A stretch of DNA of 64,000 nucleotides from Malacoraja senta (Eukaryota): NCBI GenBank assembly GCA_038087875.1, contig CM075991.1:5394001-5458000 (forward strand). Direction: 5' to 3'. The position numbers and the translations under genes are program-made. Positions 28,581-43,876 of the stretch are shown piece by piece. Numbering within the stretch: position 1 is the stretch's first letter; each line of letters begins with the position of its first letter. The notes beneath the pieces are model-generated. The model worked only from the letters and a program-made list of their open reading frames with translations, made no database searches and was not told where the DNA came from.

Positions 28581-29029
28581 GTGTTTGCATCTACCCTCTG
28601 CATGGGTTCCTCCTTAGGCTCCTGCTTCCTCCCACCTCTCAAAGGTATGAGGGGTGTTTTGGAGATACAACGTGGGAGCATGCCCTTTGACCCAACGAGT
28701 ATGCGCTGACCAATGATCACCCGTACACTAGCTCTACGTTATCCCAGTTTCGCATCCTGCACACTATGGGCAATTTACAGATACCAATCAATCCACAAAC
28801 CTGCACATCTTTGGAATGTGGGAGGAAACCGGAGCACCTAGAGAAAACCCATGCAGTCACAGGCAGAATGTACAAACTCCATACAGACAACACCCGTAGT
28901 CAGGATTGAACTCAGGTCTCTGGCGCCGTAAGGCTGCAACTTTACCGCTGCGCCACTGGGCAGCCCTAGGGGGTAGGTGAATAGGCCACTGTAGGCGAAA
29001 AGGCCATTTTCTTTGCTGTATGCCTACTC

Positions 29030-29870
29030 CATCACTGATGGAGACGAGTCAGAGTATAGAAGTGAGATCGACCGACTGACCAAATGGTGCCAGCACAATA
29101 ACCTGGCCCTCAACACCAGCAAAACCAAGGAACTGATTGTGGACTTTGGAAGAAGTAGGATGGGGACCCACAGTCCCGTTTATATCAACTGGTCGATGGT
29201 GGAAAGGTTCAAGAGCTTCAAATTCCTGGGCGTGCATATTTCCGATGATCTCTCCTGGTCCCAGAACACTGATGCAATTATAAAGCAAGCACATCAGCGC
29301 CTCTACTTCCTGAGAAGATTACGGAGAGTCGGTATGTCGAGGAGGACTCTCTCTCGAACTTCTACAGGTGCACAGTGGAGAGCATGCTGACCGGTTGCAT
29401 CGTGGCTTGGTTCGGCAACTTGTGCTCCCAGGAGCGGAAAAGACTGCAAAAAGTTGTAAACACTGCCCAGTCCATCATTGGCTCTGACCTCCCTACCATT
29501 GAGGGGATCTACCACAGTCACTGCCTCAAAAAGACTGGCAGCATCATCAAGGACCAACACCATCCTGGCCACACACTCATCTCTCCACTGCCTTCAGGTG
29601 GAAGGTACAGGAGCCTGAAATCTGCAACAACCAGGTTCAGGAATAGCTACTTCCCCACAGCCATCAGACTATTAAACTCAAACAAAATCTGAACTTTATA
29701 TGTTTATTTATGTGTGTGTATATATATATTCAATTGTATTTGGACACAATGATCTGTTCTGTATTATTTATGTCTGCAATATTCTGTTGTGCTGAAAGCA
29801 AAGCAAGAATTTCATTGTCCTATCTGGGACACATGACAATAAACTCTCTTGAATCTTCAATCTTGAATCT
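29030..29870 (+). mobile_element. Rex1/Babar-like LINE 3' fragment, same family as 31932-34228
   Basis: ITDGDESEYR..WCQHNNLALNTSKTKELIVDF..., near-identical to the 707-aa ORF. (TCTTGAA)n tail. Confidence 0.9.
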
Positions 29871-30265
29871 CTAAACTAACCTAAACTTCCCCCGAAGAGT
29901 AGACACTTTGTACTGAAGGACCTATTTGCATGCTACATCTCTAATTTAAGCTACTATAAACTGAACTAGACTACATTTCCCCAAAGAGTGGATAAATTGA
30001 GCTGAAAGGCTTGAATCCAAGGGTACTTGATGGGAACGCAGGGAGAATGCAGTAGGAATAGTGTAAATGAGTGATTGATAGTGGGCACTAACTCAATGAA
30101 TTGAAGGGACTGCATTCTGCTGACTCTCCATAATTATGTGAGATCCTAAGACATAGGAGAAGAATTAGGCCATTCGGCCCATCGAGTTAGCTCTGCCATT
30201 CGATCATTCCTGATCTTTTTTTCTCACTCAATCCCATTCTCCTGCTTTCTCCCCATAACCTTTAA

Positions 30266-30461
30266 ACTTCTTCTTTCGTGTCCATCTTCCATGTTTCAAA
30301 TGTTGACATCGCTGTCATCGTCCGTCCTGAAAAGGACGCAAGCTTCCGGCGACAATCAGTGGGAGCCATCACTTGTTGCAATAGATGATGGTGGTCGCAA
30401 AATTAGCTCGGGATACTTCCAGTTTCCAGCCCCGCGACGTGGATGCTTCTGCCATGGGGCC
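30266..30461 (-). mobile_element. Short (GAA)n-tailed retroposon headed by an HDV-like ribozyme
   Basis: TSD CCATAACCTTTAA at 30253-30265 and 30460-30472, inside a CR1 tail. 3' end GGACACGAAAGAAGAAG. Confidence 0.85.
30397..30461 (-). ncRNA. HDV-like self-cleaving ribozyme candidate (65 nt)
   Basis: GGCCCC AUG GCAGAA GCA UCCACGU CGC GGGGCU GG AAACUGGAAGUAUCCCGAG CUAA UUUUGC. P1 with a G1-U wobble, P2, P3 (one A-C mismatch), P1.1 CC/GG, and C-U-A-A in J4/2. Confidence 0.75.
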
Positions 30462-31931
30462 ATAACCTTTAATACCCTTACTAATCAATCTACGCTTTAA
30501 AAATACCCGATGACCAAGCCTCCACAACTATCTGTGGCAATGAACTCCACAGATTCACCACCCTCTGGCTAAAGAAATACCTCCTCATCTACATTCTAAA
30601 GGTACGTTCTTTTATTCTGCTACTGGCAACATCCTCTCCTTTTTTTTTTTCACTTTAGTCTTTATTGCAACATCCTCTCCACACCACTTCTATCTAGGCC
30701 TATCATTTTTCGGTAAGTTTCAATGAAATCCCCCCCTTTTCTCCATATTTTTTTCTTGCTTCAAGAGGCTCCAATGAACCGGATGTTTTTTTACATGGTG
30801 GTTATCATTACTGAGTTTCAATTCCAAATGTATGTATTCACGTACCCAAATTCCTCTGCTGCTGTGGTGGGATTTGAATTTGGTCTTGGAGCAACCATGC
30901 AGAGTCCAGTATAATTGACCAGGAAGCTAACATATCCAGCATTCTATAAGCTACGAACCAGGTAAATATCCAGATGTTGTTTCCTCAGGCAGAAGAGTCT
31001 GGATCTTGAGTAAGGAGTCAGCCATTTAGGATTGGGGTGAGATTTCTTCACTCAGTTGAGAAAATTCCAAATCCTCTGCCAGGTTTTAGTTCAGTTTGTT
31101 TCATTTATCGTCACGTGTACTGAGATACAGTGAAAAGCATTTTGTTGCCTGCTATCCAGTCAGATGGAAGACTATAAGTGATTGCAATCGAGTCATCCAC
31201 AGTGTACAGATACAGGATAAAGGGAGTAATGTTTAGCATGCAATAAAGTCCAGTAAAGTAATTTAGGACATCCTGTTTGTTAAACGAGGATCCCAACCTG
31301 AAACATCACCTATCCATGTCCTCCAGAGATGCTGCCAGACCCGCTGAGTTAATCCAGCAGTTTGTGTCTTTTTTTTGTAAACCAGCAGCTGCTGTTCTTT
31401 GTTTTTCCTTATCCAGTAATGGTTAAGAATGACACTGATGTACAGTTTTCCTACATTATAGATCATTGTTACGAATTGGAGTAATGTGCAGTGGCAATGC
31501 ATGGTGTATGTATATGCAATACAAACGCAGAACTTTTTTGTGGCATCATATTGTTTGCATTGGAGCTTCTGTTCTAAAGTACTGCCATTGTAAATTGCTG
31601 GAGTGCTGTGTGGTGTAATGAATTAGAATGACACGTCACAATGCACTGGAGCGACAAGTTGTTGTATGCTGCACCAACAATGTAAGCACCCCAGGGTGCT
31701 AACAAAACTGCTAAACATGGTGCCACAATTCACAACTCAAGGCTCTGTCAAAGCTGGAAATTGAGATTAGGTACTTTCCTGTAGGGCGCAAGAAAAACTT
31801 CAACCCACACTTATTCCTGTTTGACAATTACGTATTTAACAATTCAGTGTCTGAATTCCCTTCAGCTGCAGTTAGTGTGTCTCAAGTGTTACCAGGGGGT
31901 CTGCTGTAGTCCAACAAGTCCTACTCATTCA

Positions 31932-34228
31932 AGTCAAGTCAAGTGAGTTTATTGTCATGTGTCCCTGGTAGGACAATGAAATTCTTGCTTTGCTTGAGCA
32001 CAACAGAACATAGTAGGCATTTACTACAAGGCATTCTATAAATATATACACAATGGTCAATATACTGATAACGTGCAAATAACAGTATTGGCTAGTAAAG
32101 TTCAGTGTTATGTCCGAGCCAGGTTTAATAGCCTGATGGCTGTGGGGAAGTAACTGTTCCTGAACCTGGTCGTTGCAGTCTTCAGGCTCCTGTACCTTCT
32201 ACCTGAAGGTAGTAGGGAGATGAGTGTGTGGCCAGGATGGTGTGGGTCCTTGATGATGCTGCCAGCCTTTTTGAGGCAGCGACTGTGGTAGATCCCCTCG
32301 ATGGAAGGGAGGTCAGAGCCGATGATGGACTGGGCAGTGTTTACTACTTTTTGTAGTCTTTTCCTCTCCAGGGCACTCAAGTTGCCGAACCAAGCCACGA
32401 TGCAACCGGTCAGCATGCTCTCTACTGTGCACCTGTAGAAATTAGAGAGAGTCCTCCTTGACAAACCGACTCTCCGTAATCTTCTCAGGAAGTAGAGGCG
32501 CTGATGTGCTTTCTTAATAATGGCATCATTGTTCTCGGACCAGGAAAGATCTTCAGAGATGTGCACGCCCAGGAATTTGAAGCTCTTGACCCTTTCAACC
32601 ATCAACCCATTGATATAAACGGGACTGTGGGTCCCCATCCTACTCCTTCCAAAGTCTACAATCAGTTCCTTGGTTTTGCTGGTGTTGAGGGCCAGGTTGT
32701 TGTGCTGGCACCATATGGACAGTTGCTCGATCTCTCTTCTATACTCTGACTCATCACCATCAGTGATACGTCCCACAACAGTGCTAATTGTTATCGAGTC
32801 TGACACATTTCCACCAATACGAACAGACTGTGGTCTGAGAGTGAGGAAGTCGAGGATCCAATTGCAGAGGGATGCGCAGAGACCCAGTTCTGCGAGTTTG
32901 GTAACCAGCTTGGAGGGGATGATTGTGTTAAATGCCGAGCTATAATCGATGAATAACAGCCTGACATATGAGTTTTTGTTGTCCAAGTGGTCCAGAGCGG
33001 AGTGGAGGGCCAGCGAGATCGCATCCACCGTTGATCTGTTGCGGCGGTAAGCGAACTGCAGTGGGTCCAGGTTTTTGTCGAGGTAGGAGTTGATCTGCGT
33101 CATGATCAACCTCTCAAAGCACTTCATCACCACAGGCGTTAGTGCCACAGGTCGATAGTCATTGAGGCACGTTACCTTACTCTTCTTGGGCACTGGTATA
33201 ATTGATGCCCTTTTGAAGCAGGTGGGGACCTCAGACCTCAGAAGTGAGAGGTTGAAAATGTCTGTAAAAACTCCAGCCAGTTGGTCCGCACAGGTTTTTA
33301 GAACGCGACCAGGTATACCATCAGGTCCAGGCGCTTTTCGAGGGTTCACCCCTCTGAAGGATTTCCTGACATCGGCCTCTGTGACTGAGACTGAAATACC
33401 GTCACAGCGAATGGGGGCTCGGCAAGGCACATCGGTGTTCTCCCTATCAAAGCGTGCGTAAAACGCATTGAGCTCATCAGGGAGTGATGTTTCGCCGACA
33501 TTCGAGCTGCCTCCAGATTTCGCCTTGTAAGAGGTGATTGCATTCAGGCCCTGCCACAGCCGCCGAACATCAGTCTCTTCCTCCAGTTTGGAGCAGAAGT
33601 CCCTTTTGGCCTTTTTGATGGCCTTACCAAGGTCGTATCTGGACTCCTTGTAGGCCACTGTATCATCAGATATGAATGCCCGGTGTCTGGACTTCAGAAG
33701 AGTGCGGATCTCAAAGTTCATCCAAGGTTTCTGATTGGGAAACGCTCGGAAGGTTTTGGTGGGGATGCAGTCCTCCACACACTTCTTAATGAAGTCTGTA
33801 ACGACTGTGCCGTATTCGTTCAGGTCCGTTGCCGAGTCCTTGAACATTGCCCAGTCTACAGACTCCAAACAGTCCTGGAGTTGTTCCTCTGCCCTCCCCC
33901 CCGACCAGCTCTGTACTGTCCTCACCTCTGGGGGTGTGCTCTTTAATTGCTGCCTGTAGGCAGGAAGAAGCAGCACCGCAGTATGGTCGGATTTACCGAA
34001 GTGAGGGCGAGGGATAGAGCGATAGGCATTCTTGATGGTGATGTAGCAGTGGTCGAGGGTGTTTGATCCTCTGGTGCAGCAGGAGACATGTTGGTGGAAG
34101 TTAGGGAGTGATTTCTTTAGGTTTGCCTTATTGAAGTCCCCGGCTATGGTGGTAAACACCTCGGGGTAAGACGTCTGATGTTTGTTGACCACGGCGTGCA
34201 GCTCCCCCAGTGCCAGACGGATGTCTGC
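31932..34228 (-). mobile_element. Young Rex1/Babar-like LINE, 5'-truncated, with an open ORF2 that lacks the RT catalytic core
   Basis: 707-aa ORF with IAGDFN, SDH, APGPDG, YRPVALT, DPLQFAYR, LFIDYSSAFN and KKAHQRLYFLRRL. (TTGAC)n tail. Candidate TSD CATTCA at 31926-31931 and 34229-34234. Confidence 0.93.
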
Positions 34229-37200
34229 CATTCATCGAGAAATGCTAACTTTTCACGAGGATCATACCCACCTAATTTCATATTACTGTCAGTTACAATA
34301 TTCCTCGAGAATATCCCAGAGCATTCTATGCTGTGAGTTTAAGAAAATTGTCTCCCCATCTTACCTTTATGTTGTCCTTTGTTTGCTGATGTTTCTTCAT
34401 CTCTCTCTCTCTCTTCCTTTCTCTTTCTCTCTCGTTCTTTCTCTCTCCCCTTTCTCTCCAACTCTCTCTCTTCTTTTTGCTCTCTCCTTTCTCTCCCACT
34501 CCCATTCTTCTCTCCTCTCTCTCTCTTGCTTTAGAGTATTTTATATAAACATACCAGCATACTCAGAGAACACAGAATAGGATATCAGAATAGTATAACC
34601 CAACATTTTCTCAGCGCATGTTAAAGCAGGAGGAAGAGACAGAAGGTTTAGTGAGGAATCTCAGCATGCAGCAATATTGTTTATTTTAATCACAATTATA
34701 AAATAATGTCTTGGATAGGTATTGAAGCCTTTAGTGAAGCAATGGAAATTTAAAACAAAAAGTTTAAATTATTTAATGATTACTGTCCAATAATGTTCTG
34801 AAGAGGTAGAGACAAAGTCTACAGTGAATTCCCAGAGTATTTTAAAACCAGTGTGAAGGAGAAACCTCTTTGATTAAATGGATTGAAAGTTAATAAATCC
34901 TCTGAGACAAATTAGAAATAGATTCCAGTGTGCAGCAGAAAGTCTTTAAGAAGGAACTGCAGATGCTGGAAAATCGAAAGTAGACAAAAGGACTGGAGAA
35001 ACTCAGCGGGTGCAGCAGCATCTATGGAGCGAAGGAAACAGGCAACGTTTCGGGCCGATTCATTGCCTATTTCCTTCGCTCCATAGATGCTGCTGCGCCC
35101 GCTGAGTTTCTCCAGTTCTTTTGTCTACCTGCAGAAGAAAGTCTCTGGACACTGGTGGTAAAGCACCGTGCAGGGACTCCACTGCAATGATAGCAATCAA
35201 TGAAACATTACAAGCAACCAGTAACACACTGCGCCAGTGACGTATGTGCACAGTTTAAAGGGCTTTGAGACATTCAGAGATCAGAATAAATGCTGCAAGT
35301 CTTGTTTTTTACTAACATCAGATGAGCATTTAAAAGAAAAGGAAATGTTAATACGCTCAATTAAAGGTTCCACAATACAATGACCTGAAAGCGGTAACTA
35401 ATCATGGAATTGCCACCATTGAATCCTTTGGGTAAGTTACTATTGACACAGACAATTTGTCCAATTATGTAGCCTAGTTCAACTGAGTAAAAGTCTTTCA
35501 AGGATTCACATTTTTCCATGTGAAAAATGAAAACCAACAAATCACGCAACCTCGGGGAAAAAAAAGTTAAAATGAAGAAACAGTCAACTGCAGGAAAACT
35601 GAGAGAGATGTGGTATTAATATGGGGAGGGACTGCAAATTATGTTTTGCAGTACTTTTTAAATTATGCAGATTAGCAACCATTTATCAGCTTGAAGGCAA
35701 CTACAACTGTGGTGAAGGAGGACACATTTTATAGGAATCTGAGGAGTAACTTTTTCACACAAAGGGTGGTGGGTGTATGGAACGAGCTGCCAGAGGAGGT
35801 CGTTGAGACAGGGACTTATGCAACGTTTAAGAAATGATTAGACAGGTATAGGGATGGGACACATTGAGGTTTAGAGGGATATGGGTCAAATGCAGGCAGG
35901 TGGGACTAGTGTAGATGGGACACATTGGTCGGTGTGGGCAAGTAGGGCCGAAGGGCCTGTTTCCATGCTGTATGACTCTATGACTATAACTGCTGTTTAT
36001 ATAACCAGTCATAACATGGTAAAATATATAAACCTGAAGTGTAATGAGAAGGAATTCCAGACCAAACTAGGGCATTACTCAAGTTCCCCAAATCAGATTT
36101 ATTTTTATGATGTAGTGAAGGTTCAAATCTGCACAGCTTTGTTCAAGAACTGAATAAATACATTATCTGCAAGTGGAACAGAATAATTACATTTCGGGAA
36201 AGATCAGAGGGAAGTTGGGACTTGCATGATTTGCTTTGAAAGAGACAGTACAGAATAAATGGGCCAAAGGGTCTCCTTCTTTGCTGTCATTCCCTTAAAG
36301 CTTGGTCAAATAGCGAGCTGTTGTGGAGGAAAGAGAAGCAGAGCACTTGAAAGATTTATGAAATGAACGCGAGGGGGCTTTGAGCTGACAAACTATTTAA
36401 TAACTTGCAGAAAGATTTAGTACCTGGGCAGGAAACTAGAAAATAAAAGGAAATAAAATGCAGAGTATTAGGTAAAACAGAACAAAACGCGGTTTTACAA
36501 TAAAGGAGATGAAGCTGGAGAGATAAATGAAGAAACATCGTTACTAGTGAGGAGAGCATGGACAAATCAAATTACAAATAGCCAGTTTGCAGAAGAGCGG
36601 AGTATGTTAATAGTATAATAAAGAGTATTTTGTGATACAAACCCAGATCAAACGTCCGGATCCGTTACAGTTTTGATCATTTGGTTTAAAAAATACTTAT
36701 GTTGGAGGGTGTAAGCCAAAGTACACCAGAATTGTCCCAAAGCCTGATGTGGATGTTCCATGAGGAAGAAACAGAGATATTTAACTCTGCAATCTAAAAG
36801 GAGACTCCTCCTTTAGACTTTAAATGACAATAGACTGGATGACTTAAATAAAGTTGGTGGGAAATAAATTTAAGAAAGCTATTAGGGGAAAGTATCCCAT
36901 GGAAAGCATAATTTCAGTAATCTGCCAAACAAAATATAGAAATCAAAGCTGTAAGTATTATTCACATTGGTGTGGATTATTTGTCCTTAATGCAAGAACC
37001 AACGTTAGGGTTGAAGCATCCTTCTCCCACTATTGCCATTGACGGAAGGGTTGAGAATCAGACAATACAAATGTAGCATGCTTGGTGAAAAGACCAAAAA
37101 TGATATGAGGTAACCTTTCCCATGTGTTGGGCATTCACCAAATCTCTGCCAAGCTCTTGATGTGTGTATTTTATTAGTTTATCAGTCTAGTTTATTGTCA

Positions 37201-42832: not shown

Positions 42833-43876
<1,044 letters not shown>

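Follow-up and report, generated by a model that had tools for sequence, protein, structure and literature searches.

The EGR3-BIN3 locus and the focal ribozyme

The window, i.e. the whole stretch of 64,000 nucleotides that was analysed, carries an EGR-family zinc-finger exon as an open reading frame on the minus strand (42833-43876), whose nearest named Atlas cluster is EGR3. Two further minus-strand exons, at about 16104 and 4309, were found with short motifs, and we take them to be BIN3-like. Between these genes lies an intergenic 196-bp element (30266-30461, minus), 12.4 kb past the EGR stop codon in the same sense; the first of the BIN3-like exons follows about 14 kb downstream. The original prediction had described a 196-bp insertion with an HDV-like ribozyme at its 5′ end, situated between EGR3 and BIN3 in the sense of EGR3, and position and boundaries agree with our analysis: the element ends in GAA repeats and is enclosed by a target-site duplication of 11 bp (13 bp when two matching G are counted), whose 5′ copy (30462-30472, minus) ends at ribozyme position -1 and whose 3′ copy occupies 30255-30265.

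All elements of an HDV-type ribozyme were found in the first 66 nucleotides of the insertion (30396-30461, minus), which make up a CPEB3-type motif with predicted cleavage 5′ of G1 at 30461. The fold was assigned without minimum-energy folding, which cannot represent the pseudoknot, and the minus-strand reading from 30461 given in the prediction matches the actual letters. P1, J1/2, the 5′ strand of P2, P3 and L3 together span 30428-30461. P1 (30461-30456 with 30433-30428) opens with a G1-U34 wobble and has six base pairs, one fewer than had been laid out; lengths of 6 or 7 bp are described as natural in the HDV-like class in the relevant part of PMC4908430. J1/2 measures 2 nt and the P2 strand 7 nt, P3 has 3 bp (30446-30444/30436-30434), and L3 is the 7-nt loop UCCACGU (30443-30437). 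The adjoining block (30407-30427) holds the GG of J1/4 (30427-30426), which forms a two-pair C-G P1.1 with L3, and a short P4 region; the wobble, P1.1 and short P4 are thus all present as predicted. J4/2 (C-U-A-A, with the putative catalytic C56 at 30406) and the 3′ strand of P2 complete the motif at 30396-30406.

In the majority sequence of the family all stems are paired, and C56 is kept in 66 of 70 aligned copies, so the pseudoknot is preserved in other copies, as the prediction demanded. The focal copy departs from this majority by four substitutions, A9G (30453), G18A (30444), C62U (30400) and U66G (30396). G18A produces the A-C mismatch in P3 that had been singled out as the one clear defect; the other three add to it, turning one P2 pair into G-U and breaking the terminal P2 pair. 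The mismatch had been ascribed to CpG decay of a former GCG. GCG is indeed the majority state: 21 of 27 top copies, 12 of 13 further 3′-anchored copies and 59 of 82 RNA reads carry G at position 18. Decay at this very site lost ground, since four of six parent-LINE copies also carry A18 and the focal change may therefore have been inherited from a sub-lineage. The A18 of the parent copies also suggests that some lineages spread despite the P3 mismatch. Judged by the mismatch and the changes in P2, the ribozyme of the focal copy is probably weakened, and the copy is probably an ordinary decaying insertion.

Compared with the Rfam model of the CPEB3 ribozyme (RF00622), the focal copy scored 28.4 bits (E 6.4e-5; best of six matches in a cmscan of 2 kb), under the cut-off of 35 bits, and at gathering level the whole 64-kb window gave zero Rfam matches. 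This score, together with the genome-wide recurrence of the family core, exceeds what chance would produce. The HDV_ribozyme model (RF00094) matched neither the focal motif nor any of the relatives scored. The proposed element-by-element likeness to the genomic HDV ribozyme therefore stands for the layout, i.e. the nested double pseudoknot, the G1-U wobble, the two-pair P1.1 and a catalytic C (putative here) in J4/2, and fails for the nearest match, which is the CPEB3 ribozyme. The 7-nt L3, the 6-bp P1 and the retroelement setting further distinguish the focal motif from the genomic HDV ribozyme. One LINE family (L231:2174-2260 and L229:2199-2285, both minus) has a P3/L3 of GCC-UCCUCGU-GGC, which differs by one base from the version of the genomic HDV core that the original prediction gives.

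A dispersed element made of the two ends of a LINE

A DNA search of the 1.94-Gb genome returned 2097 first-look candidates, and the 40 that were scored were 94–100% identical. An exact 19-mer of the family core occurred 435 times in the genome and its reversed control 0 times, an exact 3′ 15-mer 672 times (control 3) and an exact 22-mer 840 times (control 0). As the 22-mer is carried by 10 of 25 sampled copies, we estimate about 2,100 copies. Three of 30 inspected 15-mer matches belonged to an unrelated repeat and were removed before counting.

Most copies start at G1, and no upstream sequence is common to them. The 3′-anchored sample introduces no bias at the 5′ end; of its 27 true copies, 24 begin at G1 (three of these with internal deletions), the remaining three are 5′-truncated and none extends upstream; in the core-anchored sample the start is at G1 in 29 of 30. 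Target-site duplications flank 48 of 65 distinct copies, with a mode of 11–12 bp and 30 of them ending exactly at -1, compared with 0 of 65 for a control with mismatched (swapped) flanks. An intact ribozyme core was present in 9 of 25 sampled copies. The base at -1 was T in 43, C in 13, A in 8 and G in 1 of the 65 copies, and the duplications often begin with A; both may reflect an endonuclease preference. The element was also matched in 20 sequencing runs under six organism codes and in one unlabelled run, from 10 studies, with no RNA run listed among them. Viral contigs gave one pattern match, which had no ribozyme context, and no related LINE.

The parent LINE was reached by a pattern built from the element's coding stretch and a four-residue motif; the pattern led to one decayed LINE, then to a young family and from there to the parent. 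A parent copy of about 3.1 kb with its own duplication (L232, on G000:C11) matches nt 2-58, 85-157 and 158-193 of the element at 91, 90 and 92%, and the three segments, covering nearly its entire length, match parent copies at 86–95%. Six distinct LINE copies, L232 and five more, start with the same ribozyme. The element is composed of the LINE's first 83 nt, the end of its UTR with the first 21–22 codons, and its last 38 nt. In the focal copy (minus strand throughout), the ribozyme is followed by a remnant of the LINE 5′ UTR at 30370-30395, which lacks about 40–50 nt of the parent sequence near element nt 83-85, then by the parent start codon and those first codons at 30305-30369, and by the LINE 3′ end at 30266-30304 with the conserved GACACGA motif and the (GAA)n tail. 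Because the element aligns at about 90% with both ends of this LINE, it is a non-autonomous retroelement derived by internal deletion. Internal-deletion derivatives of Vingi LINEs are on record, e.g. those of Vingi-1_EE among the published entries.

The parent copies that we examined are broken and about 89–90% alike; an intact parent ORF was not encountered among 26 matches, of which part were translated. In a young sister LINE family the copies are 97–98% alike and have open frames of more than 1000 codons. Pfam identified endonuclease and reverse transcriptase (RT) domains in the LINE proteins, and no RNase H domain was matched in the proteins examined, which were two of 1001 and 986 aa from intact sister ORFs and the N-terminal 291 aa of the parent. 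In the part of PMC13708176 concerned, Vingi elements are defined as being about 3 kb long, with one ORF that encodes an APE endonuclease and an RT but lacks RNase H, and the LINE has this layout and size, being a single-ORF endonuclease/RT element of about 3.1 kb without an RNase H match. Moreover, comparison by eye revealed the same ribozyme motif in the 5′ ends of Vingi-2_Gav, Vingi-4_Crp, Vingi-1_BF and Vingi-2_SPur, as far as these regions are printed in the supplement of Kojima 2018 (PMC5786205). Homologues of the LINE protein were found in lancelet, sea urchin, fish, insects and Anolis. None of the database matches carries the name Vingi, and the label follows from the published 5′-end match, the size and the domain layout. 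In an endonuclease/RT tree, built with homologues of which none is named Vingi or Ingi, the LINE clusters with proteins of Anolis, lancelet, sea urchin and insects, and the RTE and Rex outgroups lie elsewhere. By its 5′ end, size and domain layout the parent LINE is best described as Vingi-type. The original prediction had not recognised the insertion as a high-copy, Vingi-derived retroelement.

Other origins were tried and rejected. An RTE parent had first been guessed from the (GAA)n tail; the three RTE families of the genome (PF20049 and protein search) have no end in common with the element. A SINE with a tRNA, 5S or 7SL head was discarded as well, the head being the LINE's own 5′ end and no such Rfam match being found. 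Two long head-to-tail pattern distances on contig C1 turned out to be a second copy and an inserted repeat rather than a LINE.

The element has two 3′ subfamilies. Subfamily B (e.g. L048) ends like the young intact LINE family (GACACGAAAAGAAG; 3′ ends L190-L201), so cross-mobilisation is possible. Two copies of the young LINE contain 4–6 tandem 26-nt repeats of the ribozyme 5′ half (L179:880-985 and L184:877-1035, reverse-complement coordinates), which perhaps arose from template jumping at the structured 5′ end. The protein of the parent copy L232 shares 72% identity with one from sea urchin (P0033) and 52% with that of the young sister family from the same genome, which hints at possible horizontal transfer.

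CPEB3-type ribozymes across families

Relatives of the focal copy exceed the RF00622 cut-off: intact sister copies scored 40.1 and 36.9 bits, the young sister LINE family 63.8 bits and a metagenome relative 55.6 bits. A genome-wide search with RF00622, in which 59 candidates were scored, gave 51 matches, 39 of them at or over the cut-off, and 14 control genomes gave none. Among the best 30 genome-wide matches, 19 were tied to 5′ ends of Vingi-type LINEs, six belonged to a second short family and five had no link. Families headed by the ribozyme number at least eight in this genome, and their structurally intact copies run into the hundreds.

The second short family (L373, L375, L379-L382; e.g. 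G000:C13:7158706) is 136–177 bp long, with duplications of 11–12 bp in five of six copies. Its head is a CPEB3-like ribozyme that lacks the P4 helix and scores 37–44 bits with RF00622; a parent LINE was not found. An older group of ribozyme heads (L364, L366, L368, L374, L377) combines a compensated P2 pair with a CPEB3-like P4 stem, whose majority sequence is CAGATTC/GAATCTG; no link was seen to any LINE examined.

The ribozyme was also sought with a structure descriptor in related metagenome LINEs (74 loci). The descriptor was positive in 8 of 19 usable 5′ windows, three of these being one family, and all positives lay 150–240 nt upstream of the ORF match. The other 11 windows were negative, several of them apparently truncated or degenerate. 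Elsewhere in 223 kb the descriptor had 0 further sense matches and one antisense match. Covariation was assessed over nine families: 166 of 170 cells are paired, with two-sided changes at 14 of 20 positions. Five of the nine families had been chosen by the pairing descriptor, which makes their share of this count circular; the remaining four, identified through homology and position, likewise show covariation in P1, P2 and P3. As a MAFFT alignment of 11 ribozymes was partly out of register, pairs were counted segment by segment. Invariant in these 11 ribozymes are G1, the core C, C and G, and the C-x-A-A of J4/2.

Among human self-cleaving RNAs, the CPEB3 ribozyme has been studied most closely, and a connection with memory has been reported for it. 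The family majority is identical to the mammalian ribozyme (RF00622) in P2, P3 and most of L3, and by eye 31 of 35 positions agree outside P1 and P4. Both have the G1-U wobble and a 2-nt J1/2, the intact sister copies lie above the Rfam cut-off, and the young sister LINE family shares with CPEB3 a single-pair P1.1 with U-U. The mammalian ribozyme occupies a single locus in intron 2 of CPEB3, whereas the motif described here heads a dispersed multi-copy retroelement in what is probably a non-mammalian chordate and is intergenic at the focal site. In the focal family, moreover, P1 has 6 bp and a different sequence, P1.1 consists of two pairs and P4 is short, and the focal copy falls under the cut-off. 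From these sequence comparisons, the ribozyme of the focal family appears as a homologue, not an orthologue, of the CPEB3 ribozyme.

Vingi LINEs and their derivatives (Vingi-2_Gav, Vingi-1_EE derivatives, SINE2-1_AMi) resemble the present families in the roughly 3.1-kb single-ORF endonuclease/RT design and the 5′ motif, as far as their published sequences extend. Outside P4, 46 of 48 printed positions agree between Vingi-2_Gav and the Rfam CPEB3 consensus, including 14 of 14 nt in P2 and 12 of 13 nt in P1, and the 7-bp P4 stem of CPEB3 recurs in SINE2-1_AMi (14 of 14 nt; all by eye, from the printed regions). SINE2-1_AMi, like the Vingi-type tails of the focal element, ends in GGACACGAAA and purines in the supplement of PMC5786205, and the ‘unknown 3′ region’ listed there is thus probably a Vingi tail.

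The core is common to all HDV-like ribozymes, the focal family is unlike CPEB3 in P1 and P1.1, and the comparison between CPEB3 and Vingi covers the ribozyme sequence itself; all this is compatible with convergence forced by the HDV fold, in which case the CPEB3 ribozyme would not derive from Vingi. We regard this as unlikely, since the identity reaches into P1, P2 and P4, stems that are free to vary, to judge by the other families. Furthermore, equally well-paired ribozymes of more distant families stay under the RF00622 cut-off. In the endonuclease/RT tree mentioned above (FastTree on projected alignments, with one RTE row excluded for low coverage), the four families scoring at least 34 bits form one clade with a support of 0.95, and the families with divergent ribozymes fall outside it. 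The mammalian CPEB3 ribozyme is thus, with good probability on this sequence evidence, a domesticated Vingi 5′ end, and one Vingi subclade would have carried the same ribozyme into sea urchins, lancelets, crocodilians and this genome.

That LINEs, and short elements derived from them, can be headed by ribozymes was already known; the listing in Kojima 2018 (PMC5786205) names six such clades, and Vingi is absent from it. Structurally related ribozymes have been noted in sea urchin, lancelet and lamprey (in a passage of PMC8256844), co-option of ribozymes from mobile elements has been suggested in general terms (in a passage of PMC7761336), and a human trace of Vingi is recorded as X12_LINE (in an entry of PMC5753468). 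In the passages of journal papers covered by our search, no link between the CPEB3 ribozyme and Vingi was found; Webb 2009, Ruminski 2011 and Kojima 2011 may describe some of the invertebrate members. The main novelty is the probable origin of the CPEB3 ribozyme, reported as not known beyond mammals, from a domesticated Vingi 5′ end. If this is true, CPEB3 gains from the Vingi families the outgroups that it has lacked, together with a natural collection of variants, one of them without P4. A named donor clade with young, near-intact members would make the origin of the CPEB3 ribozyme testable by outgroup comparison and dating, and would indicate which features, such as the U-U P1.1 and the ACGU loop, were inherited and which were selected in mammals.

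Proposed role of the ribozyme in retrotransposition

Taken together, our results make it highly probable that the focal bases are the head of a short, non-coding element derived from a Vingi-type LINE; the first 66 bases of this element would form a CPEB3-type self-cleaving ribozyme that frees the element RNA at its first base for copying by the LINE endonuclease and RT. The closest precedents are NARTc/L1Tc and RIME/ingi of trypanosomes (Pr77, L1TcRz), which likewise pair a short element made of a LINE's two ends with an HDV-like head; in those systems the head cuts at +1 and the duplications are 11–12 bp, according to the relevant part of PMC3383444. The present element differs from them in its animal host, a Vingi-type parent without RNase H, a (GAA)n tail in place of poly(A) and a CPEB3-type sequence, and activity is predicted here. 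From the fold and the covariation, a source copy would be transcribed by read-through or from an internal promoter and would then cleave itself at G1. By the precedent of L1Tc/NARTc and RTE, the LINE protein would bind the GACACGA-(GAA)n 3′ end and insert the RNA by target-primed reverse transcription. The focal copy itself would be a passive insertion.

Ribozyme activity might instead be ancestral, with the 5′ region of this family acting mainly as an internal promoter, a protein-binding site or an end-protecting fold and cleavage being weak or dispensable. This would suit the 6-bp P1, the weak P4 and the A18 in four of six parent copies, and in L1Tc the same 77 nt serve as promoter and ribozyme, as stated in a passage of PMC3383444. 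RNA reads also lack an end pile-up: none was seen in one raw RNA run that spans the element in both orientations and consists of single-cell reads, which are ill-suited to mapping 5′-OH ends and not assignable to the focal copy. We consider such a replacement function quite improbable, as the element's 5′ end lies exactly at G1 and the catalytic C, the G1-U pair, L3 and J4/2 are kept both within the family and across families.

Under the preferred reading, self-cleavage, the likely role by analogy is excision of the element RNA from host read-through transcripts; full-length 5′ ends could come from an internal promoter instead. Release from read-through transcripts with an exact 5′ end would correspond to what is described for L1Tc/NARTc in part of PMC3383444 and in a section of the review PMC6765202. 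A self-cleaving 5′ end would also matter for RNA design in gene-writing platforms, in which Vingi-1 UTRs are in use according to the part of PMC13708176 concerned, and the hundreds of intact copies could cut host transcripts as well.

The hint that the focal copy is connected with EGR3 read-through found no further backing: within the locus, nothing but orientation ties it to EGR3 or BIN3 function. That the host co-opted it to cut EGR3 read-through RNA and insulate BIN3 would fit its sense orientation and its place between the two genes, and is very improbable given that the family has about 2,100 copies dispersed in the genome, half of them expected in sense by chance, and that the focal one carries four ribozyme substitutions when 9 of 25 sampled copies have an intact core.

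The window contains further repeats. A 707-codon RT ORF (32108-34231, minus) and a fragment (28995-29692, plus) represent another LINE family, presumably Rex1/Babar-like, that is unrelated to the present finding. There is also a run of 200 N at about 12.6–12.8 kb. Finally, a hammerhead-type core motif, recognised by its pattern and comparable to those of Penelope-like elements, occurs in a common repeat at about 47704 and 195, both on the minus strand.
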